Assembly: GCA_947303225.1 (NCBI GenBank)
Contig: CAMYXG010000001.1
Location: 1-34,970 of the forward strand
Length of the DNA: 34,970 bases
Direction: 5' to 3'
Source: an uncultured Bacillales bacterium
GTDB lineage: Bacteria > Bacillota_I > Bacilli_A > RF39 > UBA660
Part shown: positions 3,273-30,826 of the stretch, in pieces
Layout of the letters: each line of letters opens with the position of its first letter
How positions within the stretch are numbered: position 1 is the first letter of the stretch
Made by a program: the position numbers and the translations under genes
Notes under the pieces: generated by a model
Databases searched by the model: none
What the model was told of the DNA's origin: nothing
What the model saw: the letters and a program-made list of their open reading frames with translations, nothing else

Positions 3273-3301
3273 GTATGTTATAATTAGAGTGAGGTTAGAA
3301 T

Positions 3302-5204: not shown

Positions 5205-5275
5205 ATTTTCATCTCCTCTTTTCTTATTTTATGTTTTATTGTATAATATTATTAGTTTTTTTTAGGAGGGATTTT

Positions 5276-14210: not shown

Positions 14211-15927
14211 ATGAAGAAAAAAGTGGTTGTATTGTTAGTTATTGCTTTTATTTTAGCATTGGTGTGGTTTTTAGTTTTATCTCCAATTTTTACTTTTCGT
14301 CAAAATGAAAAGATGGTGGAGAATGCTGCTAGGGAATATTTTGAATTAAATTCTAGAGAATTACCTACTGGGGAAAGAGTAAAGACAGTATCTTTAAAGA
14401 CATTGTATTATAATAAATTTTTGGAAAAAGATATTTATGTTCCTTTTCAAAGGAAGAACTGTTCCTTAGATGATAGTTGGGTAAAGGTAAAACGTGTAGA
14501 TGGAAAATATGAATATTATACCTATTTGGATTGTGGAATTATCAAGTCTTCTATTGATGCTAAGGGTCCAGAAATTCGTTTAAAGGGTAATACTACTATG
14601 TCTTTAAGCTTAGGAGAAGAATATCAAGAATTAGGAGTATCTAGTGTTGTAGATGATGTGGATGGTAATTTAAAGGTTGATGATGTTGTTATTAAGGGAA
14701 GTGTTGATACTTCTAAGATAGGAAATTATGAGATTACTTATACGGCTTTTGATCATTTAAGTAATAAAACAACTGTTACTAGAACTGTTCGTGTAGTTCA
14801 AAAGTTATATCAAACAGTGAAGAAGCAACTAAATGATTCTACGAATTATGTTGGGTATCCTGAAAATAATTATTTAAGACTTTCTAATATGCTTTTTCGT
14901 ATTTATGGTGTGGATGATAATAAGAATGTTATTATTGTTGCAGATGAAGATGTTACAAATGTTAATTATTCTAAAATAGATAAATGGTTAAAATACTATT
15001 ATGATCATTTAAATAAAAAGACAAAGAAAATGATTGTTCCATCAAAATATTGTAATATGACAATAGATGAGGCTAATCTTGGTACAAAAGAATGTAGTTC
15101 CTATACAAATAATAAAAAGGTATATATCCCTTCTGTAGTGGAAGTTAATAAAGCTCAGGGTACTGATAATAATTTTATGAAGACTAGAACTATGTCTTGG
15201 GTTTCTAATATGCAGGATGCGAAGAAAGCTTATTTAACAAGAGATGTTTTCTATTATTAAGCATATGGAAAGAGTTTTTTAGCTTATGATGCTGATGAGA
15301 ATTATGGAATTCGACCAATGATGGTAATTAAAGGTGGATCTCAAATTCAGAGTGGTGATGGTAGTTATGAAAAGCCTTATACTTTTGGAGATAGTAAGTC
15401 TGGTTCTGGTGGTTCTCTTCTTAAAGAACGCTCTACTGGAGAATACTTAGAGCTTAGTGGAATTTTATTCCGAATTATAGATGTGTGAAAATTCTGATAA
15501 AATAACATATGATCCAGCTGATAAAACGAGTGTAGCTTATTTTATTAATAATCGAATTAGTGAATATATTGATACTTCATTCTTTCAAAAGCATGAAATC
15601 GAAGTGCCAGTTTATAAAGATAAGATTATTTATGGTGAAGAAATTTCTAAGAAAAAGTATACTGTTTTGTTAGCAGCACCAGATATGTATGAAATGTTTA
15701 GTGCACAATCATCTACTTTACAAGGAAACATTTCTTTGTCTTATTGGTTAAGGAATACTTCTCAAGCAGAAAGAATAGGGGCTGCTGTATATGATGCTGG
15801 AGTACCTGTTAATGAGAAGATTAATTCTTTTGATCAGTATGGAATACGTGTTGAAGGATTTATTAAGGGTGATAGTGTAATTAACCGAGGAAATGGTACT
15901 CTAGCTTCACCTTATAAATTGAGATGA
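14211..15927 (+). pseudogene. Disrupted paralog of the membrane-anchored Ig-like/adhesin-like gene at 21626-23428
   Basis: ORFs 14211-15260 and 15481-15927 align with the N- and C-terminal parts of the 600-aa protein. An in-frame TAA at 15258-15260 is followed by 220 nt that still read through in the same frame (AYGKSFLAYDADENYGIRPMMVIKGG...GILFRIID). About 29 codons present in the paralog are then missing, and the frame shifts near 15480. Confidence 0.8.
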
Positions 15928-15946: not shown

Positions 15947-16744
15947 TTGAGGTTTAAAACTAAATATTTAATTATTAGTTGCTTATTGATTATTTTTGTT
16001 GTTGGAATATCATTTCTATTATCAAAAGAGAAAAGTCATTATCAAATTGAATCTAGGTTGTCAAATGTTCTTGCTACTAAGATTGATGTAGATAATGGGT
16101 TCCATACAATTGGTTGGATTCGTGTTCAAGGTACTAATATTGATTATCCTATTATTCGGTCGGATGATGTACATGCAAATTTTCCAGTTCAATTAGAAAG
16201 TTTTTCATGGTCTTTAAATCATGATGATCAATATCATAATCATATCATCTTGATGGGACATAATATTTTTAATCTTTCTGCTACTCCAAAAAGTCATGAT
16301 GAGAGATTTCATCGCTTTGAAGAATTAATGAATTTTGTTTATTATGATTTTGTAAAGGATAATCAGTTTATTCAATTAACGATTGATGGGAAAGAGTATC
16401 TTTATAGAGTGTTTGCTGTTGGTTTTTTAAATGAATCAGATCTTTATAGTCTTCTTTCTCCTGATGATTATTCAAAAAAAGATTTGAATCAGTATTATCA
16501 ATTGATGGATGATATTAATATTTATAATTATGATGTTGATGTGAATGAGAATGATGATATTATTACTCTTTCTACTTGTACTCGTCTTTTTGGAGATGGT
16601 TATAAAACTGGATTTTATGTAAGCGGAAGATTATTAAGAAAGGAAGAATCTACTTATCTTTCTTCCGTAAGAAAAAGTAAAAAGTATCAAGAAGTTGAAA
16701 AGATTTGGAAGGGAGATGTAACAGATAATGAAGATTATGCATAA
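15947..16744 (+). CDS. Sortase-fold protein, class B-like, N-terminally membrane anchored (cassette A)
   Basis: GWIRVQGTNIDYPII, IILMGHNIF (catalytic His context), YLYRVFAV and IITLSTCTR (catalytic Cys context) parallel the S. aureus SrtB motifs GWIKLSGTSLNYPVL, ILYGHH and IMTLSTC. TTG start after a gggggg RBS. Confidence 0.7.
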   Translation: MRFKTKYLIISCLLIIFVVGISFLLSKEKSHYQIESRLSNVLATKIDVDNGFHTIGWIRVQGTNIDYPIIRSDDVHANFPVQLESFSWSLNHDDQYHNHIILMGHNIFNLSATPKSHDERFHRFEELMNFVYYDFVKDNQFIQLTIDGKEYLYRVFAVGFLNESDLYSLLSPDDYSKKDLNQYYQLMDDINIYNYDVDVNENDDIITLSTCTRLFGDGYKTGFYVSGRLLRKEESTYLSSVRKSKKYQEVEKIWKGDVTDNEDYA

Positions 16745-19451
16745 AAAAATTATTATTCTTTTATTATTATTGATGGCTTTTATTCCTAGAACTGTATCAG
16801 CTACTATCAAAAAAGGGAATGGTTCTGAAACATGTACTAATTATATTAAAGACATGGATGATGGAACTGGATTTATTTCTAAGTATGGAATTAGTTTACA
16901 AACTAAGCAAGATAAGTTTGTTTTAAAAATAACTAAGTCAAAGATGTCTGCTGCTGCTAAAAAGGAAAAAGATGTTAAGTTTAAGATTGTGAAAATAGCA
17001 ACTTTTTCTCAGTATGATGATTATGACAATCCAATTTTCGATTCGGAAATTACTAGTGCAAAAGTGATTAAAAATGATTATATTCTATCTAATGATAATG
17101 CATTGGTTCCTGGTGGTACTTTAAATGTTAAGTTGATTGCAAAACCTGGGGTTGCTATATTTATAGAGCCAGATGGTTTTAGTGATTCTGAATTAACAAA
17201 AAAATGTGGTAGTAAAGCTTATTTTACTGTTTTATTTACTGGATTTCCTGCTGAAGGTGATATTCCAGAAACTGATGATGTAACAGATAAGGAAATAAAA
17301 AGTCCAGATGGTGACGATATTAGTAGTAAAAAAATCATAGATTGTAATAATTATAAGAATAAGGGGTGGAGTACATCTGGTTTTAATTATCAATTCTGTG
17401 ATGTTAAGACAAAAGCCATTCAAGCAAACGGTGGTGAAAAGAGTAATAGTGTTACTCAGAAATTGAAATGTGATGTTACAAAATGGAATTATACTTCAGA
17501 TTATTATGTCAATAAAACATATTTATGGAAAACGAAAACAAAAAATATTAAAAATGAAAAAGTTACTAATGAAGATGGTACAGAACAAAAACTTGGTAAT
17601 TTGGTTTATTATTATAACTATACTTGTGGAAATAAAAATGGGGATCCTCAGAATGTTGGTTCTTGTAAATTAACATGTGAAGAAGCTGTTATTGTTGAAT
17701 ATGGTCCTCCAATTGCTTCTAAAGCTGGACTTTGTTTTGAATATAAAGTGAAAGTTACAAGTCGTGTTAGTTGTGGTGTTGATCAATATCCACCAAAACC
17801 AACTAGAGGTAAATTATGTACGCCTTCTCCTCAATGTACGGTTCCAGGAAGTGGAATTGTGCATACACAAGGTGGACCTAATGAAGACTTTGATGCTTGT
17901 ATTCAATCTTGTGATGGTGGTAGTTATTCTGATAAGTGTAGTAATTTCTGTTATCAAAAAGTTTATGGCGATTCTAGTGTTAAAAAGACTTCTGGTTATG
18001 AGCTTAATTATGCAGATAAGTTAAATTCAGTAGTTAATTCTTCTACTGTAGAACAAGTTCGAAATGGAGCAACGACACATGAATACTATTGTGATAGTAA
18101 CAATAATATTATTTGGAATACTGGACCTACTGGTTTATCTAGAGATTCTAGTATGGGAAGGGGAAATCCAAATGATCCAAGATGGCATAGAGAGCATTCT
18201 AGTTGGGGTATTAGTCCAATGTCTGGCTATCAGTGTTATTCTGCAACTGGTATTCCAAGACGTTGTAATTGTGGAGAAACATGTACTTGGACAAAAGGAA
18301 GTTGCTCTAGTGTAACGAAATCTTATATGAATCCTGGTGAGGCTACTGATGCATATAATGATAATGTAGATCGTTATAATAATTACGTAAAGTATTGTAA
18401 TCGTGCTGCGACATGTACTACTACTACAGCTACTTTTACAATTAGTACTTCTGTAGGAAAAACTAAGTACACATTCCCATATTCTACGGATGCTGATCAA
18501 TTACAATATAAAGGACTAAAAACTAAGAAAACTATTCTTTCTAATAAAGGATGCTATTCTAGTGATGACTCAGAGGATCTTTCTCATGAATGGTATTTGG
18601 CAGAATGGAGTTTTCCTGGAACATTTATTCATAATAAGACTGGTGAGATATCTTATGAAAATAAAATAGAGAATTCTGGATGGCAAAAGGTTGATAAGAA
18701 ATTCTGTTTACCTCTTAATGCTCCTAGTGTTAATCAAAAATGGTGGAATTATTATTATACTAAAGAATCTAGTGGTTCTAAGACGTATTCTTTTGAGACA
18801 ACGGAATATAAAGATAATTGTCCTCAGACGTGTCGATTTACTACAGTTTCTAGTATTGCTCCTGGTGATATTTCAAAATGGAATATTAATGCTGTAACGA
18901 AAAAATTTGGACATTATGGTTGGAATATTACTATCTCTTGCTTCTATGCTTTAAATAATAATGTTACTTTAACGACAAAAAAATGTACAGTACCTGAGTG
19001 TAAAACATCTAATCCACAGGCTTATCGAATTCGTTCTGTTGATTTGGGTAACTTATTCCCTAATCCTGATGGTTCCTCAATATCTAATTATACTGAAATT
19101 GGAAGGGCTCCTGGATTCAATTGGAGTAGTAGCGCAAAAAATACTGTTAAGGATCCAAAATTAAAGAGTAATGCTAGTACCTATGCTAAGGCTGTTCAGA
19201 AGAAGGCTGATAAAGTATATAATTCTAGTTCTGAATTGGATTATCATATTTATTTGACTAAGGATATCATCAAAAAAATTAAATCAACTGGTCAGAATTA
19301 TACTTCATATTCAGGCTCTACAAGTATTACTAATGTTAGTCATTATCAAAGTGATTTAATTCGTAATGTAATTGGTGCAACTGAAATTCCTCAACCAGGA
19401 GATTTACAATGCAACAATTTACTTAATCGAAAATGTTCTACTAATAAATAA
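16728..19451 (+). CDS. Large secreted cysteine-rich protein of unknown family (cassette A, intact)
   Basis: 907-aa ORF. Signal peptide KKIIILLLLLMAFIPRTVSA|T. About 33 Cys by my count. No C-terminal sorting signal. Paralog of 24252-26930. Confidence 0.85.
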   Translation: MKIMHKKIIILLLLLMAFIPRTVSATIKKGNGSETCTNYIKDMDDGTGFISKYGISLQTKQDKFVLKITKSKMSAAAKKEKDVKFKIVKIATFSQYDDYDNPIFDSEITSAKVIKNDYILSNDNALVPGGTLNVKLIAKPGVAIFIEPDGFSDSELTKKCGSKAYFTVLFTGFPAEGDIPETDDVTDKEIKSPDGDDISSKKIIDCNNYKNKGWSTSGFNYQFCDVKTKAIQANGGEKSNSVTQKLKCDVTKWNYTSDYYVNKTYLWKTKTKNIKNEKVTNEDGTEQKLGNLVYYYNYTCGNKNGDPQNVGSCKLTCEEAVIVEYGPPIASKAGLCFEYKVKVTSRVSCGVDQYPPKPTRGKLCTPSPQCTVPGSGIVHTQGGPNEDFDACIQSCDGGSYSDKCSNFCYQKVYGDSSVKKTSGYELNYADKLNSVVNSSTVEQVRNGATTHEYYCDSNNNIIWNTGPTGLSRDSSMGRGNPNDPRWHREHSSWGISPMSGYQCYSATGIPRRCNCGETCTWTKGSCSSVTKSYMNPGEATDAYNDNVDRYNNYVKYCNRAATCTTTTATFTISTSVGKTKYTFPYSTDADQLQYKGLKTKKTILSNKGCYSSDDSEDLSHEWYLAEWSFPGTFIHNKTGEISYENKIENSGWQKVDKKFCLPLNAPSVNQKWWNYYYTKESSGSKTYSFETTEYKDNCPQTCRFTTVSSIAPGDISKWNINAVTKKFGHYGWNITISCFYALNNNVTLTTKKCTVPECKTSNPQAYRIRSVDLGNLFPNPDGSSISNYTEIGRAPGFNWSSSAKNTVKDPKLKSNASTYAKAVQKKADKVYNSSSELDYHIYLTKDIIKKIKSTGQNYTSYSGSTSITNVSHYQSDLIRNVIGATEIPQPGDLQCNNLLNRKCSTNK

Positions 19452-19473: not shown

Positions 19474-19962
19474 ATGAATAAAGGTATGTTAACGGTTGGA
19501 ATTATTCTTTTGAGTGTTATTGCATTATTATTAATTAATGTTTTAAATAATTATATGACTGGTGGGGAACTTGATTATTATTTAGTGAAGGAAACTGCTG
19601 ATGCTGCTATGGAAGATGCAATGGATAAAATGTATTTAAGAACATGCGGATTGCCACGTATGGATAAGGAAAAATTTGTAGAAAATTTTGTTTATCGTTT
19701 TGCAAATAGTGTCGATTCTAATCGTGAATATGATTTGAAATTTTATGACTTAAATGAAGTTCCTCCAAAGATTACTGTAGAAGTAAACTCGTTGACCGTT
19801 TTATCTTTTAATGTATCTGGAGAAAAAAATAGTAAACAAGCAGCTAATATTTCTACAAAATATAGTGCTATAGCAGAGTCTTCTTATTATAGTGATCCTG
19901 CTGTAGAAGAAGGTTTTACAAATAATATTTCTAAAAAAGATCAATGTAAACCTTATAAATAG
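19474..19962 (+). CDS. Small prepilin-like / N-terminally anchored protein (cassette A)
   Basis: RBS aaggaggg. A 4-residue leader MNKG is followed by a 20-residue hydrophobic stretch MLTVGIILLSVIALLLINVL. Two conserved Cys. Paralog of 26946-27464. Confidence 0.8.
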   Translation: MNKGMLTVGIILLSVIALLLINVLNNYMTGGELDYYLVKETADAAMEDAMDKMYLRTCGLPRMDKEKFVENFVYRFANSVDSNREYDLKFYDLNEVPPKITVEVNSLTVLSFNVSGEKNSKQAANISTKYSAIAESSYYSDPAVEEGFTNNISKKDQCKPYK

Positions 19963-20028: not shown

Positions 20029-20061
20029 TATATAGAATGATAATAGGGGAGTGTGAACTTT

Positions 20062-21615
20062 ATGATTTTTCGTAAACCTTATGCCTTTCTAATTAAGAAT
20101 TTTAAGAAAATTCATATATTTTTACTATTACTAAGTTTGTATGTTGCCTATAAATTAATTAATGTTAATCATTTTGTTGGGGAATTTATGAAATTTGGAT
20201 CTTACGATTATTTTCAAGATCCTATTACAAATCATATTACTATTTGGTTGAGGATATCTATTTTAGTATTAGTATTTGGTAGTACAGCATTACTATTTTT
20301 ATTACATCATAAAAAGAAGCCATGGAAAATATATTTAGTTCCTATTGTTGAATATCTTGCATTATTTTTTGTATTAGGAATGATTCGAAGTTTCTTTAAT
20401 AATTATTCTAGTGATATTGAGACGACAGATTTACGTCTATCTAGAGATTTATTAATGATATTTTTAATTGCTCAGATACCTGCAATTGGTATTTTTATGA
20501 TGCGTGTATTTGGGTTGGATATTCGTAAGTTTCATTTTAATTCTGATGAAGAATTCTTACAATTAAGTGAGGAAGATAGAGAAGAGTTTGAAGTTAATAT
20601 AAATATTGATCAGCATTCTTTTAAACGTGGTTATCGAAGATTTATTCGAAATATCAATTATTTTTATATAGAACATAAAAAAATATGTAGAACTATTATA
20701 GGAATTGTTGTTGCCGTAGCTCTTTTTCAGACCTATCGACTTATTTTTGTTACTCATAAGAGTTATCAAGAAGGAAATGACTATAGTGTTAATGGTTATA
20801 CTATAAAAGTACATAATAGTTACTATACAGATAAAGATTATACCGGAAATGTTATTTCTAAAAATAGCAATTTTATCGTAGTTGATTTAACGGTAACTAA
20901 TTATGATGCTCCTAGAAAGCTGAAAATAGATAATTTTCATATAAAAAATGGGACTAGTGATTTTGTATCTACTAGAAAAACATATGAAAAAGAGTTTCAA
21001 GATTTTGGGACTACTTATGAAAGTGTAAAAGAATTTAAAAGAGATGAATCTTTTCGGTTTATTATTATTTATAAAGTAGATAAAAATTTAAAGATTAATA
21101 ATTTTAATTTGTTTTATCAAGAACATGATTATTTACGTAAAATTAAATTACATGTAAAAGATTGTCGAGAAATAGAAGATGGAGGAACTATTTCTTCTGG
21201 AGATACTATGAATTTTATGCTTCAAGGAAAAGAGGAGAATATTTCATTTGATTATTTTGAATTTAATAGTGAAGTTTCTTATTTTGCAAGGTCTTGCAAT
21301 AGTGTGACTTGTTCAGTTAATGAGCAAACTTATACTGCAAGTGGTGATAATACGGTATTGAAAATTGACTTTGCTTCTGATACTTTTGAAGGAAAAGACA
21401 TGGTTGACTTTTCAAACGATTATGGTAAAATTGTTTATATAGATAATAGTAATGATGAGAATGAAAAGGTAGAGATTGATTTTCATTATCCTTTTTCTAA
21501 AAAAGCTACTGGTAAGTATTTGTATACTTTGGTTCCAAAGGTAGTTGAAAATTCTAGTAGTGTAGAAATTGTTTATACTGTTCGGAATAAGAGGTACGTA
21601 TATAAGTTGGTATAA
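20062..21615 (+). CDS. Polytopic membrane protein with a large C-terminal extracytoplasmic beta-rich domain
   Basis: Five hydrophobic segments in the first roughly 235 aa, then about 280 aa of non-hydrophobic sequence (YSVNGYTIKVHNSYY...FIVVDLTVTNYD...FHIKNG) reminiscent of DUF4352-type Ig-like domains. ATG 20062 is better spaced from RBS ggggag than the track GTG 20053. Confidence 0.7.
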   Translation: MIFRKPYAFLIKNFKKIHIFLLLLSLYVAYKLINVNHFVGEFMKFGSYDYFQDPITNHITIWLRISILVLVFGSTALLFLLHHKKKPWKIYLVPIVEYLALFFVLGMIRSFFNNYSSDIETTDLRLSRDLLMIFLIAQIPAIGIFMMRVFGLDIRKFHFNSDEEFLQLSEEDREEFEVNINIDQHSFKRGYRRFIRNINYFYIEHKKICRTIIGIVVAVALFQTYRLIFVTHKSYQEGNDYSVNGYTIKVHNSYYTDKDYTGNVISKNSNFIVVDLTVTNYDAPRKLKIDNFHIKNGTSDFVSTRKTYEKEFQDFGTTYESVKEFKRDESFRFIIIYKVDKNLKINNFNLFYQEHDYLRKIKLHVKDCREIEDGGTISSGDTMNFMLQGKEENISFDYFEFNSEVSYFARSCNSVTCSVNEQTYTASGDNTVLKIDFASDTFEGKDMVDFSNDYGKIVYIDNSNDENEKVEIDFHYPFSKKATGKYLYTLVPKVVENSSSVEIVYTVRNKRYVYKLV

Positions 21616-21625
21616 GGAGATATAT

Positions 21626-23428
21626 ATGAAAACAATAAATGATAATTTAAAATTAGTAGTTACTATCTTAATTGTTGGTTTATTTTTATGGTTTTTAGTT
21701 CTTTATCCTATCATTAATTTTCATAATAATGAAAGTTTATTAGAAAATGCTGCTAGAAGGTATTTTGAATTAAATCCAAATGATTTACCAACTGGTGAGA
21801 GAGTGAAAACTGTTACATTGGAGACGTTGTATCATAAGTCTTTTTTAGAAAAAGATTTATATGCTCCATATACAAGGAAGAATTGCTCTATCAGTAAAAG
21901 TTGGGTAAAGGTTCGTCGTGAAAACAATCAATATCAGTATTATGTTTATCTAGATTGTGGAGGTGCTCTACATTCCTTAACAGATCATAAAGGTCCTGAG
22001 ATACGGTTAAATGGAGATTTAGATGTTTCTGTTTCTCTTGGAGAAGATTTTACTGATCCTGGAGTAAAAAGTGTAATTGATGGAGTTGATGGTCGTTTAA
22101 AAAATGCTGAAGTTGTTACTAAGGGTAAAGTAGATACTTCTAAAGTTGGTACGTATGAGATTACTTATACAGCAACTGATCAATTGAGTAATAAGACAAC
22201 TGTTACTAGGACTGTTCAAGTTGTTCAAAAACTATATCAAACTATCCTTCAAAAATTAGATAATAGTCGTAATTTTGTGGGGAATCCTGATGATAATTAT
22301 TTAATACTATCTAATATGATGTTTCGTATTTATGGTGTTGATGATGCGAATGTTTTGATTGTTGCAGATGAAGATGTTGCCAATGTTAACTATTCTAAAT
22401 TAGATAGTTGGTTAGAGTATTATTACAATCATTTAAATTCAAAAACTAAAAAGATGATTGTTGCTTCTCAATTTTGTAATATGAAGGTAACAGATACTAG
22501 TTTAGATACTACGCAGTGTAATTCTTATACAAGAAAAAGAAGTGTATATATTCCTTCGATAGTGGAAGTTAATAAAGCTGGTACTATGGAAGATAATTTT
22601 ATGAAGACTTCTACCATGTCTTGGGTTGCTAATTCAAAGAGTGATAAACAGGCTTATGTTACACGTGATCTTTTCTTTGGTGATTCTTATGGTAAAAGTT
22701 ATTTACCATATAATATCACTGATAATTATGGAGTTAGACCTATGATGTTTATTAAGGGTGATTCTTTAATAACTGGTGGTGATGGTACTAGAGAGAATCC
22801 ATTTGTATTTGGTGATACGAAAAAAGGATCGACTGGTAAGCTTGTTCATGATCGATTTACAGGTGAATATATTACAGATGGTGGACTTTTATGGAGAATT
22901 ATTGAGCCTATAGACGATGGAACGACTAAAATCATTAGTGTTTCTAGTATTATTAATACTTCAGCAGATGTGACTTTTTATCCTGATCCAGATAGTGATA
23001 TTATTCAATATAATCCAAAAGATAAGATGAGTGTTGGATACTTTATTGAAAATGGGATTCGTTCTTACGTGGATACTTCTAAGTTTGTACGACATGTTGT
23101 AGAAGTTCCTATCTATAAAAATAAGATTATTTATGGTGAAGAGGTTGATACCAAAAAATATGAAGTAATGTTATCAGCACCGAATATGTATGAATTATTT
23201 AGTGCTCAAACAAAAAATATTATTGGAGAGTATTCTAAATCATATTGGTTAATTAATAGTTCTAATGGTAAACGTATTGCTGGAGCGATTACGGATATTG
23301 GAGTTCCAATTAATGAGCCGATTGAGTCATATGATTCATTAGGTGTGAGGGTTGTTGGATATTTGAAAAAAGATATCACTATAAGTAGTGGAAAGGGTAC
23401 AGAGGTTTCCCCTTATAGGATTAAATAG
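21626..23428 (+). CDS. Membrane-anchored surface protein: pilin-like N-terminus, Ig-like (DUF5011-type) domain, two WxxxS...GVRP-type modules (cassette B, intact)
   Basis: ATG 21626 lies 6 nt after aaggag; the track start 21569 overlaps the upstream gene. TM segment LVVTILIVGLFLWFLVL. GPEIRLNGDLDVSVSLGEDFTDPGV...GTYEITYTATDQLSNKTTVTRTVQVV resembles DUF5011 Ig-like domains. MSWVANS...NYGVRPMMFIKGD...GDGTRENPFVF and SYWLINS...LGVRVVGYL...GTEVSPYRI resemble the DUF6273-type motif. Confidence 0.8.
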   Translation: MKTINDNLKLVVTILIVGLFLWFLVLYPIINFHNNESLLENAARRYFELNPNDLPTGERVKTVTLETLYHKSFLEKDLYAPYTRKNCSISKSWVKVRRENNQYQYYVYLDCGGALHSLTDHKGPEIRLNGDLDVSVSLGEDFTDPGVKSVIDGVDGRLKNAEVVTKGKVDTSKVGTYEITYTATDQLSNKTTVTRTVQVVQKLYQTILQKLDNSRNFVGNPDDNYLILSNMMFRIYGVDDANVLIVADEDVANVNYSKLDSWLEYYYNHLNSKTKKMIVASQFCNMKVTDTSLDTTQCNSYTRKRSVYIPSIVEVNKAGTMEDNFMKTSTMSWVANSKSDKQAYVTRDLFFGDSYGKSYLPYNITDNYGVRPMMFIKGDSLITGGDGTRENPFVFGDTKKGSTGKLVHDRFTGEYITDGGLLWRIIEPIDDGTTKIISVSSIINTSADVTFYPDPDSDIIQYNPKDKMSVGYFIENGIRSYVDTSKFVRHVVEVPIYKNKIIYGEEVDTKKYEVMLSAPNMYELFSAQTKNIIGEYSKSYWLINSSNGKRIAGAITDIGVPINEPIESYDSLGVRVVGYLKKDITISSGKGTEVSPYRIK

Positions 23429-23443: not shown

Positions 23444-24286
23444 ATGAGTTGGAAAAAGAAAAGAATTTCAAAAAAAGAAAAAAAACAAAGACAAGTGATT
23501 TTATTAGTATCTCTTGTTGCATTGATTATTTTACTATTTGTAATAATGCTATGTGAAATATTTGTTACTCATAAAGATTTTTATGAAATGGAATCAAGAG
23601 TTTCCAATGTGGCGTTGGCACAAGATAGTAATAATGATAATTATCAAACTGCTGGTTGGTTGAAGGTTCAAGGAACTAACTTGGATTTGCCAGTTTTAAC
23701 AGGAATTGATAATGATATTGATTTTCCAGTAGAGATGGAAAAATATGTTTGGAATGTTGGTAATAAAAGAGGATTTCAAAAGAAAATTGATATAATGGGA
23801 CATAATATTTTTAATTTGTCTTCATCTCCTAAACTAACATCTGATTCTTTTAATCGATTTGAAGAATTGATGGGATTTGTTTATTATGATTTTGCAAAAG
23901 ATAATAAATATTTTCAAATTACAATTGATGGAAAAGATTATCTCTATAAAATATTCTCTGTAGATTTTATAGATGCTGTTGATGTAGATATGTTTCCAAG
24001 TGGAGATTATACAAGGGACGATATTCAATATCAGCTTGATTTATTTAAGAAAAATACGATTTATGATTATGATGTTGATGTAAATGAAGATGATAGTTTT
24101 GCTTCTTTGATTACCTGTACAAGATTTTTTGGAACGGAAGAATATATTGACTTTTTAGTTAATGGAAGACTTGTTCGTTCTAATGAAAAAATAAAAGATT
24201 ATGATATTAAGAAAACAAAAAATTATGCAAAAGTTGAAAAAGTATTGAAAGGTGATGATGACAATGATACGGACAGTTCGATGTAA
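23444..24286 (+). CDS. Sortase-fold protein, class B-like, N-terminally membrane anchored (cassette B)
   Basis: GWLKVQGTNLDLPVL, IDIMGHNIF, YLYKIFSV and ASLITCTR. Paralog of 15947-16744 with the candidate catalytic His and Cys conserved. Confidence 0.7.
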   Translation: MSWKKKRISKKEKKQRQVILLVSLVALIILLFVIMLCEIFVTHKDFYEMESRVSNVALAQDSNNDNYQTAGWLKVQGTNLDLPVLTGIDNDIDFPVEMEKYVWNVGNKRGFQKKIDIMGHNIFNLSSSPKLTSDSFNRFEELMGFVYYDFAKDNKYFQITIDGKDYLYKIFSVDFIDAVDVDMFPSGDYTRDDIQYQLDLFKKNTIYDYDVDVNEDDSFASLITCTRFFGTEEYIDFLVNGRLVRSNEKIKDYDIKKTKNYAKVEKVLKGDDDNDTDSSM

Positions 24287-24569
24287 GAGAATATTGGGGT
24301 TATCTATTCTAGTGCTTATTGTATCTGTTTTTTCATTCTTACAAGTTCAAGCAAAAACAAAAGAAGAATGGAAAGCATATTGTAAGGATTATCTTCCTAA
24401 TACGAAGTTTGTTTCAAGATATAATGCTACGATTGAAGAAGTTGATATTACAGATAGTGGTCTTGCTTCTAAATATAAAATATCAATTAATCCAAAGTCA
24501 TCTGATGCAGATTTAAAAAAGGCTTTGAGAAAAATTGTTTTTGTAGTTTCAGAGGTTAATGGTAAGTAA
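24252..24569 (+). CDS. N-terminal (signal-peptide) fragment of the cassette B cysteine-rich protein, ended by an in-frame TAA
   Basis: Signal peptide RILGLSILVLIVSVFSFLQVQA|K. It is in the same frame as 24654-26930, and the 84 nt between them contain no other stop. Confidence 0.6.
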   Translation: MMMTMIRTVRCKRILGLSILVLIVSVFSFLQVQAKTKEEWKAYCKDYLPNTKFVSRYNATIEEVDITDSGLASKYKISINPKSSDADLKKALRKIVFVVSEVNGK

Positions 24570-24653
24570 CAAGATGGAAAACAAACTGTTTCTTATAAAT
24601 ATCCACTTATCATTAAGGGTAGTTTTACAAAAGATTCTTCTGGAGAACAGAAG

Positions 24654-26930
24654 ATGGAAGTAAAGTTGACTTCTGTTGAAGAAAATGCTGATCCACATTG
24701 TATTGGAAAAGTTAATTTTACTCTTACTGTTGAAAAAATGGGAGATTCTTTTACTACTAAAGAACCAGTTAATCCTATTGTGGATGAGTTTGGTCAAACC
24801 GATGGTCAAGCTATTGACTGTAGTAAACCTCAAACTGAAGCTTTTGAAAAAGCATTTTGTGAGGCAAAAAATGGTGCTATGGCAGCTGATCCAAATAAGA
24901 AATTAGGATTAAACTATGATGGTAAATTTAATGATCACAAGACGTTTAAAGATGTTTTATCTGGTTATAAGGAATTAAAGTGTAGTGTAACTAATTTTAA
25001 TACAGTAAATGGTTATTATGTAAATAAGACATATTTATATGGATCTGGTGAAAACAATATGACGTTTGGTACTTATAAATATCATTATTCTCCAGGTGCT
25101 ATTACAAAAGGTGCTACTGTTAAATGTAAAGTAAAATGTGAGGAATCTGTTGTTGTTGAATATGGTCCTCCAATAGCTTCTAAAGCTGGATTGTGTTTTG
25201 AATATAAAGTAAAAGTAACGAGTCGTGTTAGTTGTAGTATGAGTGAAAAACCTGTTGTTCCTGAAGTACAAGATTCTTATTGTACTCCTACACCTATTTG
25301 TAGAACTAGTGCTGGTACTTATACTAATCAAGGTGGACCTAATGAAGAGTTTGATGCTTGTGTTAAGGCTTGTGATGGTGGTAAATATACTGATAAATGT
25401 TCTAAAAAATGTTATAGTAAAGTATATGGTAATGATTCCGCAAGTAAAACAACAACGGCTGGTAGAGAGTATTTAACGGAGAGACTTGCTTATTCTGAAA
25501 GTGCATTTAGTTTAGGAACTTGTATAAAAGAAAGCAGTTACCATGGATGTTATTATAGAAGTGGTGGCGGTATTAATTGGAAAGGACAAGCTGTTTCTAC
25601 TCCAGGAAGATGGTATTTAGTATATCCTCATAAAGATTTATCAGAATATGCTGTCTTTGGAAATGGAATTTATCGTCATGTATATTCTGATGGAAATCAT
25701 TGTCATGATGTTTGCTGGTGGGCAGGATGTAGTGGTAATGTTTATTTGAATCCTGGTCAAGCAGAAAAAGATAGAGAAAATAATAAAGAAATTTATGATA
25801 AAGCAGTTGCTAAATGTAAAGCTACTGCAACTTGTACAACAACTACTGCTGATTTTACAATCTCTGTTAATTATAAAGATGGTAGCAATACTGTTAAAAC
25901 GATTAACTTCCCTTATACAGAAAACAATAATTCAAAGGATCATTTAACTTCTAAAGGTGCTGCTAATGGTTACCAAGATACTGCTACGAATCATAATACT
26001 ACAATTCTAGATTATTCTGGATGTTATAAAGAAAAGAAAGCTTATCGTATTTATATGACTGAATGGAGTTTCCCAGGATCATGGATTAATAATAAGACAG
26101 GTGAAATTTCATATGTTAATAAGAATAATAATACTGCATGGCAAACATTAAAAGAAAAATTCTGTATACCTCTAGATGCTCAGAATGTTAATCAAAAATG
26201 GTGGAATTACTATTATAGTCGCGATATTATAAATCCAAATTATTCTACAAATAGTAGTTCATATCAACAAAATTGTATTGATCAGGGATATGGTGCTAAA
26301 CTTATTAAAACGATTACAGAAGATGATATTGAAGACTGGAATATTAAGGCACATACTAAGAACTTTGGATACTTTGGATGGAATATTAAGATTTCTTGCT
26401 TCTATGCATTGAATACTAATCCATCAAGTGTAACTAATACCAATTCTTCTACAAGTGTTCCTGATGCATGTCAATCTGGTTCTGCTTATCGAATTCGTTC
26501 TGTTGATTTAAATAATTTGTTCCCTGCTACAGATGGTTCAAATAATTCTAGAACACCTGGATTCAACTGGAGTGAATATGCAACTGTTACGAAGAAAGCA
26601 GAAAATGCTGCAAATAATTATTACACAATTAAGCCTGCAGAGTATGCTACGAAAGTACAAAAAGTTGGAGATAGTGTTTATTCTGATGAGTACTTAAATT
26701 ATTCAATTGATTTAACTCGTTCTATGATTGCTGCTTTGAAGAAGGAAAATAAAGCAATTGAAAATAATTATTCTGATTTCTCTGGAAAAACTGATACCAA
26801 TTATGTTATTAACTACCGTAGTCCATTATTTAGAGATGGTGGAATATTGAGTAGTAGTTCAAAATATCCTAATGAGGAATCATTAAAATGTAATAATATG
26901 AAGAAATTTAATGGTGGTTGTGAAGGATAG
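24654..26930 (+). CDS. Body of the cassette B cysteine-rich protein (no signal peptide of its own; probably one gene with 24252-24569)
   Basis: 758-aa ORF with about 28 Cys. It is colinear with residues from about 150 to the end of the 907-aa paralog and shares identical blocks: VEYGPPIASKAGLCFEYKVKVTSRVSC, ATCTTTTA, NKTGEISY, VNQKWWNYYY and AYRIRSVDL. Confidence 0.8.
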   Translation: MEVKLTSVEENADPHCIGKVNFTLTVEKMGDSFTTKEPVNPIVDEFGQTDGQAIDCSKPQTEAFEKAFCEAKNGAMAADPNKKLGLNYDGKFNDHKTFKDVLSGYKELKCSVTNFNTVNGYYVNKTYLYGSGENNMTFGTYKYHYSPGAITKGATVKCKVKCEESVVVEYGPPIASKAGLCFEYKVKVTSRVSCSMSEKPVVPEVQDSYCTPTPICRTSAGTYTNQGGPNEEFDACVKACDGGKYTDKCSKKCYSKVYGNDSASKTTTAGREYLTERLAYSESAFSLGTCIKESSYHGCYYRSGGGINWKGQAVSTPGRWYLVYPHKDLSEYAVFGNGIYRHVYSDGNHCHDVCWWAGCSGNVYLNPGQAEKDRENNKEIYDKAVAKCKATATCTTTTADFTISVNYKDGSNTVKTINFPYTENNNSKDHLTSKGAANGYQDTATNHNTTILDYSGCYKEKKAYRIYMTEWSFPGSWINNKTGEISYVNKNNNTAWQTLKEKFCIPLDAQNVNQKWWNYYYSRDIINPNYSTNSSSYQQNCIDQGYGAKLIKTITEDDIEDWNIKAHTKNFGYFGWNIKISCFYALNTNPSSVTNTNSSTSVPDACQSGSAYRIRSVDLNNLFPATDGSNNSRTPGFNWSEYATVTKKAENAANNYYTIKPAEYATKVQKVGDSVYSDEYLNYSIDLTRSMIAALKKENKAIENNYSDFSGKTDTNYVINYRSPLFRDGGILSSSSKYPNEESLKCNNMKKFNGGCEG

Positions 26931-26945
26931 GAGGTTTAAGATTAT

Positions 26946-27464
26946 ATGAATAAAGGTATGTTAACAGTTGGAATTATTTTGCTTAGTGTTATTGCTTTAT
27001 TATTAGTCAATGTACTATCTAGTTATTCCACTGGAAGTGAATTAGATTATTACTTAGTAAAAGAAACTACAGATGCTGCTATGGAAGATTCTATTGATAA
27101 GGTCTTCCTTAGACAGTGTGGTTTGTATCGAATTGATAAAGAAAAGTTCGTTGAGAGCTTTCTTTATCGATTTGCTGATAGTGTGGATGCTTCTCGTGAT
27201 TATCATATTAAATTTTATGATATTAATGAAGTTCCTCCAAAAGTAAGTGTTAAAGTAGATTCATTAACGGTTCTTTCTTTTAATGCTAAGACTGCTAATG
27301 GACAAACGAAGAATGCCGCAGATATTACTACAAACTATGATGCTATTTTGGAAACTAAATACTTATCTGATTTAGCTGTGGAAAATGGTTTGAAAGAGTC
27401 TGAACCAAGTTCAATTACTTATGATCAGTGTAGGGCATTAATTGAAATGAATGGAAAGAAATAA
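26946..27464 (+). CDS. Small prepilin-like / N-terminally anchored protein (cassette B)
   Basis: The first 20 residues, MNKGMLTVGIILLSVIALLL, are identical to the cassette A paralog. RBS aggagg. Confidence 0.8.
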   Translation: MNKGMLTVGIILLSVIALLLVNVLSSYSTGSELDYYLVKETTDAAMEDSIDKVFLRQCGLYRIDKEKFVESFLYRFADSVDASRDYHIKFYDINEVPPKVSVKVDSLTVLSFNAKTANGQTKNAADITTNYDAILETKYLSDLAVENGLKESEPSSITYDQCRALIEMNGKK

Positions 27465-27482: not shown

Positions 27483-28295
27483 ATGGGTAATTTATCTACT
27501 GGGTTAAAAAAGTTTATGCAAAATAAGAATACTGTTACAGTAGTTGGTGTTGTTGCTGCTATTATTGTATTGTATTTTGCTTATACTATGCGTATTAGTT
27601 CTGCTATTAATCCAATTCGAGTTCCTTATGCAAAGGAACAAATTCCTGCAGGTACTCAAATTACGGAAGCAATGATTGAGACGATGGAAGTACCTCCTTC
27701 AATGCTAGAGGGTGATGTAATTCAAAATACTGGTGAAATCATTGATAAGTATGCTGCTGCTGATACTGTTATTCCAGCTGGAAGTTTGTTTTATAAGCGA
27801 GCAGTGGTAGAAAAAGAACAATTGCCTGCTAATATTATTTTGGAATATCCAAAGGGATATGTTTTATATAATTTATCTGTTGATACTACTTCTACTTATG
27901 GTAATTCTGTATATCCAGGTAATTATATTGATATTTATTTAAAAGCAGTAAATGTTGTTGATGAGTCTAGTCCTGCTAATTTAACAAAAGATGCTGATAA
28001 GATTATGTTAGGAAAACTAATGGCTAATATTGAGGTATTAGCAGTTAAGGATGCTGATGGTCAACCAGTTTTCCAAAATATTGATGAGAATAGAGTTCCT
28101 GCTATGGTTGTATTTGCTCTTCCTGAGGAATACTATGTTCTTCTAAAAAAAGCAGAAGAGATGAGAACTTATGATACTTCAATTATTTTAGTTCCTACGA
28201 ATGAAAGTTTAAAAGATGAGCCAGCTGAACTTGAAATTAGTAGTGAACAATTAAAAGATTGGATTAATACTAATACTTTTTGGACAGATAATTAA
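27483..28295 (+). CDS. cpaB: Flp pilus assembly protein CpaB/RcpC-like (SAF plus RcpC-type domains)
   Basis: N-terminal TM segment. SAF-like IRVPYAKEQIPAGTQITEAMIETMEVPPSML...TVIPAGSLF, then RcpC-like GYVLYNLSVDTTSTYGNSVYPGNYIDIYL...IEVLAV...MVVFALPEEYYVLLKKAEE...IILVP. Confidence 0.75.
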   Translation: MGNLSTGLKKFMQNKNTVTVVGVVAAIIVLYFAYTMRISSAINPIRVPYAKEQIPAGTQITEAMIETMEVPPSMLEGDVIQNTGEIIDKYAAADTVIPAGSLFYKRAVVEKEQLPANIILEYPKGYVLYNLSVDTTSTYGNSVYPGNYIDIYLKAVNVVDESSPANLTKDADKIMLGKLMANIEVLAVKDADGQPVFQNIDENRVPAMVVFALPEEYYVLLKKAEEMRTYDTSIILVPTNESLKDEPAELEISSEQLKDWINTNTFWTDN

Positions 28296-28319: not shown

Positions 28320-29909
28320 ATGAACGAAAATATTTTTGATAAGTTAGATTTTGGACCTTTTCGTTCCTTATTGGATAATGATGATATAACTGATATTTCC
28401 TATGATAATAATGGTCAAATTTGGATTCGTTCTTTGACTCAGGGTTCTCTTAGAGTTGAAGTTGAAGGTGCGACTCCTGAATTTGTGGAAAAATTAGCTT
28501 TTCAATGTTCTAATGTTATGGGTACTACTTTTAATAATGCTAAACCTTTTTTAGATGCTGAATCTGCAGAGTTACGTATGAACTTTGTTCATCAAAGTAT
28601 TGCGACGAATGGGATTGCTCTTGTTATACGTAAAACTCCTGCTAAGATTCGTTTGGAAAAAGAAAAGTTAATTCAAGAAGATTATTTTACTCCTGCGATT
28701 CATGATTTTCTTATTAAATGTGTTGAGGGACATTGTAATATTATGGTTGCTGGAGAAACTGGTTCTGGTAAAACTGAGTTTGTTAAGTATTTGGCGAGTC
28801 ATACAAAGACTAATGAGAAAATTATTACGATTGAGGATACTTTGGAATTGCATTTAGATAAGATATTCCCTCAGCGTGATATTGTTTCTATGAAAACGAA
28901 TAATGTTGCTAGTTATTCTGATGTTTTAGTTACTTGTATGCGTCAGAATCCAAAATGGATTCTACTTTCGGAAGTTCGTTCCGCAGAGGCTGTTTCTGCT
29001 GTTCGTAACTCTATTTCATCAGGACATAATATTTTATCCACAATTCATGCGGATAAAGCATCTGCTATTCCATATCGTTTATATTCTTTGATGGAAACTG
29101 ATTTGGATGTTCATCAGTTTTTAACAACGATTTATCGTTATATTCAATTAGGTGTACATATTAAGGCTTTTTATAGTAAAGAATATGGAAAGTTTCATCG
29201 TGAATTAGATGAAGTTTGTGAATTTTATGTAGATGATGATAATGTTCCTCGTTCAAGGATTATTTATCAAAAACTATTTGGAAAACCTATGATGTGTAAA
29301 CCAAGTGCACATTTGGTTGAATATTTGGAAAATCAAAATATTCAAGTTCAAGATATTATTAAGGATTTGCCTGAAGAACTTCCTATACATAAATTTGAAG
29401 AGGAAAAGGATACTCAAGCAAAAGAAGGGGATACTCAAGAAGTATCTAAAGATGAAGAAACGGTTGCTCAGGAAACTGTTGCTGAAAATGATAATACTTC
29501 ATTAAATGATTCTATTGATTCTGCACAGGATGCTTCGGAGGTGGAAAAAACTCCAGATGTGATATCTCCACCAGTTTCAGTTACTCCTGATGCTAGTAGT
29601 GTTGTTTCATCTGTTCCAGAAGACGTTTCTGTAGCTTCTACACCTCCTACTGTTTCAGCACCTGCAGTTCCAGAGGTTACTCCTGTTGCGCCTACTTCTA
29701 CTGTTGAACAAGTTTCACAAGTTAATGATAGTGTAGGATCTGTTGCACCTGCTGTGAGTGTTCCGGTACCATCTGTTGCTAGTATTGCACCTGCGGTAAG
29801 TCCTATTGTTCCACAACAACAAGTTGTGATTCAAGCTAATGTTCCACCAACAGTTCCTCCTGTTGTTGGAGTTGCACCTGCTGTTGCAGTGGCTAAGCTT
29901 GGAGAATAA
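28320..29909 (+). CDS. tadA: TadA/CpaF-like (VirB11-type) secretion ATPase with a long low-complexity C-terminal tail
   Basis: Walker A VAGETGSGKTEF, Walker B-like WILLSEVRSAEA and His-box GHNILSTIHADKA. The last 170 aa or so are acidic and then P/V/S/A-rich. Confidence 0.85.
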   Translation: MNENIFDKLDFGPFRSLLDNDDITDISYDNNGQIWIRSLTQGSLRVEVEGATPEFVEKLAFQCSNVMGTTFNNAKPFLDAESAELRMNFVHQSIATNGIALVIRKTPAKIRLEKEKLIQEDYFTPAIHDFLIKCVEGHCNIMVAGETGSGKTEFVKYLASHTKTNEKIITIEDTLELHLDKIFPQRDIVSMKTNNVASYSDVLVTCMRQNPKWILLSEVRSAEAVSAVRNSISSGHNILSTIHADKASAIPYRLYSLMETDLDVHQFLTTIYRYIQLGVHIKAFYSKEYGKFHRELDEVCEFYVDDDNVPRSRIIYQKLFGKPMMCKPSAHLVEYLENQNIQVQDIIKDLPEELPIHKFEEEKDTQAKEGDTQEVSKDEETVAQETVAENDNTSLNDSIDSAQDASEVEKTPDVISPPVSVTPDASSVVSSVPEDVSVASTPPTVSAPAVPEVTPVAPTSTVEQVSQVNDSVGSVAPAVSVPVPSVASIAPAVSPIVPQQQVVIQANVPPTVPPVVGVAPAVAVAKLGE

Positions 29910-29923: not shown

Positions 29924-30826
29924 ATGTATATTGAAGAGTTATTCATTATTATTGTCTTTGTAGTTGCTATTTATTTATATAGAAATTATCAGGGAGATAA
30001 TGTAGGTAAATATGTATTGGAACAAGTACAAGGAGCTTACGATCGTTTTGCACCTTATTCTTTTAAGGTTGTTCGTGAAAAGACAAAGCAGTTGGGAGAA
30101 GAGTATACTCCTAGACAATATGCTATACAAGTTTCTTTATTTGCTTCTTTTGCTGCAGTTGTTACTTATTTATACTTTTATAATTTAATTATTAGTATTA
30201 TTTATGCTTTAATTGCTGTATCATTTGTTCCTTATTTGACTTATTTAAGATGTAAAAAGACTTATTCCGAATTTTTATTTGAACAAGTTCAAGTATACAC
30301 TTCTAATACTATTATGGAGTTTGCTACTACGCAGTCTTTTGTTAAAGCACTAGAAGGTGTTGCCAATTCCGGTATTTTGGAAGATCCTGTTCTTAGTGAT
30401 GTTCGTCAAATGATTACTATGTCTTATGATAATGGTACGATTGATGAAGCATTAGAATATATGAGTAAGTTATATCCTTATTATATTGTTAAGAATATGC
30501 ATCAGTTGTTTTTACAAATAACTAAAGAGGGTGCTCAAAATTCTGCAGATTCTCTTGAAAATATGCAGTTAGATATCGATATGCTTGTTGAAAGTGTGTA
30601 TCGAGATCGTATTGAACGTGCATCTTTCCACAAATCCTTTTTACAGTTTGGTATTATGCTGTATTTAATGGTTATGTTAGTTCAGTATTTGTTGGGAAGA
30701 GAAACCTATTTGGTACTACTAGAACGATGGTATATTCAAGTTCTAATGCATGGAGTACTGATTATTAATACATATTTCCTTTTAAAAGGTGAAAAATACT
30801 ATAATGAAAATGTAGGTGCTGAGTAA
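29924..30826 (+). CDS. tadB: TadB-like inner-membrane platform protein (T2SSF-type topology)
   Basis: Topology is N-terminal TM, TM pair, about 130-aa soluble domain, then C-terminal TM pair. It sits immediately after the ATPase and is coupled to the next gene by a TAATG overlap. The call rests on topology and synteny, not on a strong motif. Confidence 0.6.
   Translation: MYIEELFIIIVFVVAIYLYRNYQGDNVGKYVLEQVQGAYDRFAPYSFKVVREKTKQLGEEYTPRQYAIQVSLFASFAAVVTYLYFYNLIISIIYALIAVSFVPYLTYLRCKKTYSEFLFEQVQVYTSNTIMEFATTQSFVKALEGVANSGILEDPVLSDVRQMITMSYDNGTIDEALEYMSKLYPYYIVKNMHQLFLQITKEGAQNSADSLENMQLDIDMLVESVYRDRIERASFHKSFLQFGIMLYLMVMLVQYLLGRETYLVLLERWYIQVLMHGVLIINTYFLLKGEKYYNENVGAE

Follow-up and report, generated by a model that had tools for sequence, protein, structure and literature searches.

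What do two sortases act on in a locus that appears to encode nothing for them to cleave? This question is raised by a 34,970-nucleotide stretch from the genome of an uncultured Bacillales bacterium of the RF39 lineage (GenBank assembly GCA_947303225.1, contig CAMYXG010000001.1, positions 1 to 34,970), which we refer to as the window. Two of its genes, both on the + strand at 15947..16744 and 23444..24286, were originally predicted to encode paralogous, class-B-like sortases. Three explanations were offered for the missing substrate: (a) the enzymes use a non-canonical signal, (b) they process or cross-link the proteins encoded beside them, or (c) their substrates are encoded elsewhere.

Sortase copy 1 (265 amino acids) has an N-terminal transmembrane (TM) helix at residues 3-25 and a conserved C-terminal extension at residues 236-254, and copy 2 has 280 amino acids. 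The copies are 42% identical. Both genes are intact, with ribosome-binding sites GGGGGG and AAGGAG. The landmark motifs are IGWIRVQGTNIDYPII, LMGHNIFNLS, and TLSTCTRLF in copy 1 and AGWLKVQGTNLDLPVL, IMGHNIFNLS, and SLITCTRFF in copy 2. Copy 1 matched the Pfam Sortase family at 33.3 bits, which is above the cut-off of 26.6, whereas copy 2 fell below it at 21.3 bits. Both matched the SrtB family TIGR03064 (MEROPS C60B; E values of 5e-14 for copy 1 and 3e-10 for copy 2), but with scores of 52.2 and 39.7 bits against an equivalog cut-off of 153.75. A phmmer search of the PDB returned Clostridioides difficile SrtB as the top match (E 5e-13), with the Clostridium perfringens and Staphylococcus aureus SrtB proteins also among the best. 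With a family profile as the query, the C. difficile match reached an E value of 8e-18. An AlphaFold2 model built from 110 homologues had a pLDDT of 90.1 and a pTM of 0.84, and the conserved C-terminal extension was packed confidently in it. A Foldseek comparison of the model with the PDB had a class B sortase at every rank from 1 to 19 (E 4e-13 to 3e-8; target-normalised TM-score [TMt] of 0.59-0.77), in keeping with a sortase β-barrel that has class-B-specific helices. Among these matches were the pilus-building sortase Spy0129 and the Streptococcus pneumoniae type II pilus sortase. The proposal that both reading frames encode class-B-like sortases with SrtB landmarks is therefore upheld, and comparison with SrtB by profile and by model pointed to no other fold. 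Both genes are predicted to encode membrane-anchored, extracytoplasmic cysteine enzymes of class B sortase descent. However, they depart from SrtB proper in three features: the Arg of strand β8, the curated score cut-off, and a cognate substrate with a sorting signal.

We counted residues at the active site positions in 110 relatives, using the numbering of copy 1. His105 (nucleotides 16259-16261) and Cys211 (16577-16579) were unchanged in 110/110; their counterparts in copy 2 are His120 (23801-23803) and Cys225 (24116-24118). In the paper describing the Spy0129 structure, an Arg at the start of β8 was noted in all sortases then known, and the catalytic triad was described as strictly conserved (PMC3019223). 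The column of this canonical Arg holds Gly222 (16610-16612) in copy 1 and Asp236 (24149-24151) in copy 2. Among the relatives, position 222 was Glu in 42, Asp in 37, Asn in 9, Gly in 7, Thr in 5, Gln in 4, and Ser in 3, and it was never Arg or Lys. The column was assigned by a profile alignment that pairs the family's '...stCtRffgedeetefyvsgRl' with 'STCTYEFD---DARMVIHGRL' of C. difficile SrtB. The Arg of DARMV in the latter is the catalytic R217, and the deposited R217A mutant (6kyd) reads DAAMV. A MAFFT alignment that included the nearest outgroup arrived independently at the same column. In the AlphaFold2 model, Cys211 is at the tip of β7 (residues 205-211), residues 221-222 begin β8 (221-229), and His105 is at the tip of β4 (99-103). 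By the alignments and the model, the canonical β8 Arg is absent, which goes beyond being hard to place.

The original prediction had stated that the Arg could not be placed with confidence. This was right in substance, because none of the 110 relatives has an Arg in the canonical column, but the residue is absent rather than unplaceable. It had also named the Arg of a GRL motif as the only conserved candidate, and this part did not hold. In the alignment, the counterpart of GRL is HGRL of C. difficile SrtB, which is non-catalytic, and the TCTR Arg had been overlooked. The GRL Arg (R228) was rejected as a catalytic residue, since it is at the opposite end of β8 and HGRL coexists with the true R217 in C. 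difficile SrtB. By comparison, the TCTR Arg, two residues after the Cys (Arg213, 16583-16585, in copy 1; Arg227, 24122-24124, in copy 2), was Arg in 109/110 relatives and Lys in 1, and it is the sole invariant basic residue near the nucleophile. Residues of the groove (HNIFNLS and TCTRFFG) are conserved in the family as well. With a mean identity of only 43% among the sortases, the invariance of the His and Cys and the near-invariance of the TCTR Arg indicate selection on catalysis.

In a profile search that covered 1.84 billion cluster representatives, 4,156 sortase-like proteins matched the family with E <= 1e-3, and 114 matched it with E <= 1e-30. The subfamily itself consists of about 70 full-length representatives (clusters at 50% identity) that have 250-285 amino acids and score >190 bits. 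The next tier, which is the nearest outgroup (uncharacterised clostridial-type sortases, P0456-P0506), scored 107-137 bits, with proteins of 290-515 amino acids that have long, low-complexity N termini. This outgroup shares the insertion that follows GHN and also the TCTR motif, but it reads 'TLSTCTR...QRFVVMARLLRPGE', and its closest members keep the canonical β8 Arg ('QRFVVMARLL'). The outgroup genes were free-standing, beside unrelated functions and with no filament or module genes adjoining, in two of four contexts, those on contigs long enough to be informative. Because these free-standing sortases keep the Arg, its loss is a derived trait of the clade that is housed in the filament locus described below. 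When one genome per species was scanned, relatives of the sortase were encoded in 344 stretches. The records of the relatives are metagenome-assembled genomes (MAGs) of uncultured 'Bacilli', 'Erysipelotrichaceae', 'Tenericutes', and 'Mycoplasma sp. CAG:877', and Ca. Faecimonas, from the guts of humans, rodents, rabbits, and ruminants.

C. difficile SrtB (5gyj, 4ux7, and 6kyd), the closest sequence match in the PDB, shares with the window proteins the fold, the anchor at the N terminus, the His of GHN, and the Cys motif TLSTCT, and its HGRL at the end of β8 corresponds to their GRL. However, it has R217 in a column that is Glu, Asp, Gly, and similar residues in the present family. The family in turn has an extra 11-residue insertion after GHN, the invariant Arg at Cys+2, and a conserved C-terminal extension of ~40 amino acids. 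C. difficile SrtB acts on (S/P)PxTG proteins that bear normal sorting signals, whereas no proteins with such signals are present here.

The genes surrounding the sortase have kept their arrangement. We examined 79 related loci, with 10-kb flanks, from the 344 genome matches. The order was near-invariant, with U32-U32-HD-GreA followed by (lipoprotein)-MEM-IG-sortase-CYS-DUF5411 and then CpaB-ATPase-two membrane proteins-Flp-like-pseudopilin(s)-TadZ-position protein-small membrane protein. Here, MEM is a polytopic membrane protein, IG is an anchored protein with a bacterial Ig-like domain, CYS is a Cys-rich protein, and DUF5411 is a putative pilin-like protein. Nearly all 79 loci have IG, sortase, CYS, and DUF5411 side by side. 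The sortase stop codon overlaps the CYS start, by 17 (copy 1) and 35 (copy 2) nucleotides in the window and by 44 nucleotides in locus L050. The window, L003, L028, and L038 each carry a tandem duplication of the cassette IG-sortase-CYS-DUF5411, and L065 does so in part. Both sortase paralogues stayed intact after this duplication. Seven additional MAGs carry two loci each. A division into two ancient cassette types was considered and dropped, because typing by best hit was inconsistent between loci.

Departures from the common order helped to define the conserved unit. Two loci of the 'Mycoplasma sp. CAG:877' type (L050 and L054) have neither MEM nor IG, and there GreA is followed directly by sortase-CYS-DUF5411-CpaB. 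One divergent family member (P0445, in L084) lies in the order lipoprotein-IG-like-sortase. Another (P0466, in L085 and L086) lies in T2SSF(561 amino acids)-A24 prepilin peptidase-CvpA-thioredoxin-MEM-like-212 amino acids-lipoprotein-IG-like-sortase-CYS-like-DUF5411. Downstream of its DUF5411 gene are genes for an O-methyltransferase, two U32 peptidases, and GreA, with no CpaB or ATPase gene adjoining. The L085 proteins are homologous to MEM (E 5e-18), IG (1e-16), and CYS (3e-12). Because these homologues stand beside other filament machinery, the conserved unit is a MEM-IG-sortase-CYS-DUF5411 module that is docked to differing type IV filament machineries. The stretch of L085 in which T2SSF, the A24 peptidase, CvpA, and thioredoxin adjoin the sortase module is at 1686-5177, and the thioredoxin may help the Cys-rich protein to form its disulfides.

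The sortase also co-diverges with the module proteins. In the 44 loci that share all genes, the mean pairwise identity was 0.87 for GreA, 0.79 and 0.78 for the proteins in the TadB and TadC positions, 0.74 for the ATPase, and 0.69 for CpaB. For the module, which evolves fast, it was 0.62 for DUF5411, 0.50 for IG, 0.46 for MEM, 0.43 for the sortase, and 0.34 for CYS. The paralogues within the window were 63% (IG), 65% (DUF5411), 42% (sortase), and 38% (CYS) identical, a ranking like that among the loci. Pairwise distances were then regressed on the filament core and housekeeping background, and the residual distances were compared with a Mantel test. The sortase residuals correlated with those of CYS (0.49), IG (0.48), MEM (0.48), and DUF5411 (0.29), all with p <= 5e-4. 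The correlation with CpaB was 0.14 (p 0.07), and with the filament core it was ~0. Therefore, the sortase shares its history with the module.

None of the neighbours of the sortase looks like a conventional substrate. A hydropathy and motif scan for a sorting motif, TM segment, and basic tail was applied to 3,023 open reading frames from the 79 loci and the window, including ~1.4 Mb of flanks. No tripartite sorting signal was found in any protein of the window or in any operon protein of the 79 loci, and ~80 IG, 80 CYS, and 73 DUF5411 sequences had no C-terminal hydrophobic segment. The earlier claim that no locus protein ends in a standard sorting signal was thus confirmed for the window, with one possible case upstream of the operon among the 79 loci, and the C termini it had quoted agreed with the translations. 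The possible case is an unrelated gene on the opposite strand of L035 (549-2459, - strand), ~6 kb upstream. It encodes an adhesin-like protein of 500-600 amino acids that ends in IQIPNTLS, a TM segment, and YRRYHQY (IQIPNTLSRASIYFSIIGICLILIGCLILFMIYRRYHQY). This protein has a CnaB-like C-terminal domain, and we take its TQIALW motif to be reminiscent of thioester domains.

A search of the family alignments for conserved motifs of the Pro-(x)-Thr type yielded three candidates. One was 'xLPTG' in IG, where Leu was present in 97%, Pro in 100%, Thr in 89%, and Gly in 99% of the 80 aligned IG sequences. Another was VPT(N/S)E in CpaB (residues 237-242), in which VPT was found in 63/63 sequences, the N/S in 63/63, and the Glu in 61/63. 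It is followed by a conserved amphipathic tail of 26-31 amino acids (…SSEQLKDWIN..T.W…). The remaining candidate was 'WSFPGTW', which is in the middle of CYS.

Of the three explanations originally offered, a non-canonical signal (a) and action on neighbouring proteins (b) are favoured over substrates encoded elsewhere (c). This is because the synteny is invariant in the 79 loci, the sortase and CYS genes overlap, and the cassette genes were duplicated together, and also because a distant lineage has the same module with other filament machinery and the sortase diverges in step with the module. We give a probability of about 0.5 to the proposal that the sortases are dedicated parts of the module and act on their cassette partners via a non-canonical signal. 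Of the partners, CYS has the tightest and most constant link to the sortase, because its gene overlaps that of the sortase, its co-divergence is the highest, and it is kept where IG and MEM are missing. DUF5411 is always the next gene after CYS. Each sortase might work on the partner or partners from its own cassette, most likely the overlapping Cys-rich protein, the pilin-like DUF5411 protein, or both. The sortase and CYS genes are probably translationally coupled. The enzyme would recognise a signal other than an LPXTG-type motif with a hydrophobic stretch and basic tail, and its Cys-His dyad, probably helped by Arg213, would cleave the partner. The cleaved partner might then be joined covalently to the membrane-anchored pilin-like protein or to the wall. 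CYS, which has no anchor of its own, could in this way be attached to the filament or matured for it. A more specific version is that the sortase joins CYS, as an adhesin-like protein, covalently to DUF5411, IG, or the surrounding wall, using the Cys-His pair and the Cys+2 Arg on a non-LPXTG signal. We regard this version as speculative and rather unlikely. If it is true, coupling CYS to a pilin would be a hybrid of two Gram-positive pilus paradigms, the sortase-built pilus and the type IV pilus.

Several observations weigh against action on the cassette partners. No recognition motif, cleavage site, or acceptor was identified among the module and operon proteins. Losing an Arg that is needed for efficient catalysis in the sortases studied could mean that activity is reduced or altered. 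The co-divergence could also reflect transfer of the cassette as a whole, with no physical interaction between its proteins. For CYS, there was no Pfam or NCBIfam domain and no sequence match in the PDB. Its AlphaFold2 model was moderately confident (pLDDT 75), and the best fold match for this model in the PDB had an E value of only 0.36. Near its C terminus, CYS has an invariant P-x6-C-N-N-x5-C loop that is followed by a variable acidic tail, and the CNN...C loop looks like a disulfide-closed structural element.

Two further points against the proposal are at the same time support for a housekeeping sortase, one that anchors sorting-signal proteins encoded elsewhere and is in a filament operon for merely historical reasons. 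These are the sorting-signal-like tail of the L035 adhesin-like protein and a report in which RF39 genomes were scored as having srtA/B, with genes and substrates unspecified (PMC10868615). In addition, all characterised sortases use C-terminal sorting signals, and the conserved groove residues HNIFNLS and TCTRFFG suggest that a conserved motif is recognised. However, the position of the sortase in the module is invariant in the 79 loci and is retained in the distant lineage with different filament machinery. The gene overlaps CYS, both paralogues were kept intact after cassette duplication, and the protein co-diverges with those of the module. The Arg was lost only in the context-linked clade, whereas free-standing relatives keep it, and just one such signal was found in the ~1.4 Mb of flanks. 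We consider a housekeeping role unlikely, though it is the most probable of the alternatives. The Arg-less protein could instead be a pseudo-enzyme that is a chaperone or scaffold, or a plain hydrolase that is a maturation protease, with no transpeptidation in either case. The absence of the canonical Arg in 110/110 relatives fits this, and the C-terminal extension, which is conserved and packed with confidence in the model, could offer a surface for interactions. There is also a precedent, in that an inactive processing-enzyme homologue, SipA, is reported to serve as a Streptococcus pyogenes pilus chaperone (PMC4049620). However, strict retention of the His and Cys (110/110) and near-strict retention of the TCTR Arg (109/110) in proteins of 43% mean identity makes a pseudo-enzyme improbable, and the plain-hydrolase version overlaps with the proposal that we favour.

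The other alternatives each make one conserved motif the cleavage site. For CpaB, a cut between the Thr and the (N/S)E of VPT(N/S)E would create a new C terminus that is linked to peptidoglycan, and the resulting wall-anchored conduit would replace the RcpC-secretin contact of diderm Tad systems. The near-invariant motif comes directly after the RcpC domain and precedes the tail of 26-31 amino acids, and its P-T-(G/N) resembles class B sortase motifs such as (E/Q/V)(V/P)PTG of Spy0129. In Pseudomonas aeruginosa, the secretin is bound by the C-terminal hairpin of RcpC, which cannot function without it (PMC12307814), and an MltG/YceG gene in the window suggests that there is a wall. However, CpaB is conserved throughout (mean identity 0.69), so that conservation of the motif is unexceptional, and the tail is itself conserved and is not hydrophobic. 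CpaB showed little co-divergence with the sortase, was not duplicated with it, and is not adjacent to the distant module in L085. We have therefore demoted CpaB to a minor rival with a low probability. Searches for distant CpaB homologues gave only relatives that are 78-86% identical, and phmmer gave none in the PDB. For IG, a cut between the Thr and Gly of LPTG, ~25 residues past the N-terminal anchor, would release the ectodomain. This xLPTG is highly conserved and membrane-proximal, and it resembles EVPTG of the Spy0129 substrate. However, the Thr is replaced by Ile, Val, Leu, Ser, or Glu in several loci that keep an intact sortase, the distant module members have LPKE and LPTE, and L050 and L054 have a sortase but no IG. 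The topology is also inverted, so that the acyl-enzyme would carry the anchor fragment. IG was rejected as the main sortase site on these grounds and is the least probable substrate considered. We regard its LPTG as structural, and we take the pattern around it to resemble the helix-end motif of pseudopilins.

The locus can be set beside further known systems. Spy0129 of S. pyogenes (3psq) and the S. pneumoniae type II pilus SrtB (4y4q) have the same class B fold (TMt 0.66-0.77), and sortases of the Spy0129 type likewise have their genes in a pilus locus and serve specifically the pilus proteins encoded nearby. Spy0129 recognises a non-LPXTG motif, (E/Q/V)(V/P)PTG (PMC3019223). However, enzymes of this type keep the Cys, His, and Arg and polymerise pilins that have C-terminal sorting signals and an acceptor Lys, whereas the present locus is type IV filament-like, with no such signals and no canonical Arg. 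Type IV pilus-like operons with DUF5411 are known in Roseburia, Ruminococcus, and Eubacterium but are uncharacterised (Nat Commun 2022, PMC9523054). These operons of gut Firmicutes resemble the window in having a CpaF-type ATPase, a platform membrane protein, a DUF5411 protein, and a large adhesin-like protein, but their description mentions no sortase and reports no Cys-rich or MEM protein. The full texts that were searchable yielded no paper on a Tad or type IV pilus operon that contains a sortase, or on an Arg-less sortase clade, although absence there is not proof. The present clade departs from the picture of sortases as enzymes with a strictly conserved triad that act on a C-terminal sorting signal (PMC3019223). 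If these sortases are active on their neighbours, then sortase chemistry and substrate recognition are wider than that picture, which is relevant to the use of sortases as tools for ligating proteins. Such activity would also reveal a way in which large secreted proteins are fitted to the type IV filaments of monoderm bacteria. The host bacteria are gut Bacilli that have reduced genomes and are widespread but uncultured, and very little is known of their surface structures.

The module partners in the window are all encoded on the + strand. IG copy 1 (14211..15927) is an N-terminally anchored protein with a bacterial Ig-like domain, and its gene is disrupted by an in-frame TAA codon at 15258-15260 and a frame change or deletion near 15487. 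IG copy 2 (21626..23428; 600 amino acids from the ATG at 21626) has an N-terminal TM segment, Bact_surface_Ig-like and DUF6273 domains, the conserved 'LPTG' ~25 amino acids past the TM segment, and a C-terminal end that reads GxGTxxxPYxIK. CYS copy 1 (16728..19451) is a Cys-rich protein of 907 amino acids with a Sec signal. CYS copy 2 (24252..26930) has an in-frame TAA at 24567-24569. In the CYS family, the signal peptide is of the normal Sec type, there are >20 invariant or near-invariant Cys residues, and motifs include GLCFEYKVKV, GGPNEDFDxCxxxCDGGxY, and CFYAL. DUF5411 copy 1 (19474..19962; 162 amino acids) begins with the invariant MNKG-MLTVGIILL, and copy 2 is at 26946..27464 (172 amino acids). 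This N terminus is probably a pilin-like signal anchor, and profile searches of the PDB for a pilin-like nature of DUF5411 and of the IG N-terminal domain gave no match. MEM (20053..21615; 520 amino acids), the first gene of the module, encodes a polytopic membrane protein with a large C-terminal extracytoplasmic domain. The lesions in the two cassettes are complementary, with IG copy 1 and CYS copy 2 disrupted and both sortase and both DUF5411 genes intact. They could be real pseudogenisation, phase-variation-like switching, or errors in MAG assembly.

The window has a GC content of 28%, and all of its genes but one are on the + strand. GC skew is strongly positive over its full length (1-34970; 0.11-0.40 per kb), and the skew and the gene orientation are consistent with leading-strand placement on one replichore. 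Housekeeping genes extend up to ~13.6 kb and encode an O-methyltransferase, RuvX, IreB, MltG/YceG, two U32 peptidases, an HD protein, GreA, a rhomboid protein, and a hybrid histidine kinase. The MltG/YceG and IreB genes make a wall-less host unlikely. No NEAT or Isd genes, which would fit a role in haem uptake, were found in the window. Four genes at 691-6433 were not kept beside the operon in relatives. They encode the hybrid histidine kinase (691-3240), which has receiver and HPt domains, a protein resembling transglutaminases (3849-4724), TspO (4746-5204, on the - strand), and a rhomboid protease of 400 amino acids (5231-6433). From ~13.6 kb to the window end there is no terminator-like site on the + strand, and the genes there read as a single long operon. 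It starts with genes for a lipoprotein, IG 1, sortase 1, CYS 1, DUF5411-1, MEM, IG 2, sortase 2, CYS 2, and DUF5411-2. These are followed by a CpaB/RcpC-like protein, a T2SSE-superfamily ATPase, two polytopic membrane proteins, and a 56-amino-acid Flp-like pilin. Two pseudopilin-like paralogues, a TadZ-position protein, and two small membrane proteins come last.

The filament genes, again all on the + strand, are Tad-like at best. The likeness to Tad (type IVc) systems is in the CpaB/RcpC-like protein, the TadA/VirB11-like ATPase, the TadB/C-position proteins, and the Flp-like pilin with pseudopilin-like paralogues. The differences are that family scores are below curated cut-offs and that a sortase module is present. 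The CpaB/RcpC-like protein (27483..28295) has SAF and RcpC domains, and the latter is followed at once by VPT(N/S)E, which is 28 amino acids from the C terminus. It scored 26.4 bits for RcpC (cut-off 28.8), 23.1 for SAF (cut-off 21), and 40.2 for TIGR03177 (cut-off 71). The secretion/pilus ATPase of the T2SSE superfamily (28320..29909) scored 96.6 bits for Pfam T2SSE, and its best NCBIfam matches were the VirB11 and TadA-family models at 111.6 and 102.9 bits, both far under the cut-offs. Its residues ~350-529 are a C-terminal tail of ~180 amino acids that is low in complexity and rich in Pro, Val, Ser, and Ala, which is unusual for a cytoplasmic motor ATPase. The length of its homologues among the loci ranged from 396 to 737 amino acids. 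The two polytopic membrane proteins (300 and 267 amino acids; 29924..31629) had no T2SSF or other Pfam match even at E <= 5, and their TadB/TadC label is from position alone.

The Flp-like pilin of 56 amino acids (31696-31866; MMKAATG/ELNLTVIT...) is without the G/xxxxEY signature, its own sequence there being KAATG/ELNLTV. The window encodes no A24 prepilin peptidase, whereas the distant locus L085 has one next to the module. We rejected the idea that the sortase substitutes for this peptidase at the ...TG/E... site because of topology, in that the leader is presumably cytoplasmic and the sortase domain outside. The two paralogous pseudopilin-like proteins (31939-32379 and 32397-32831) have (F/L)GG N termini and conserved Cys pairs, and the TadZ-position protein (32857-33873) matched no family. 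The operon ends with two small membrane proteins that have two TM helices each (33932-34237 and 34324-34818). The former is conserved in 48/79 loci, and the latter had a weak match to T4SS_pilin (PF18895, E 0.009). Both resemble VirB2/TrbC-like pilins of type IV secretion systems.

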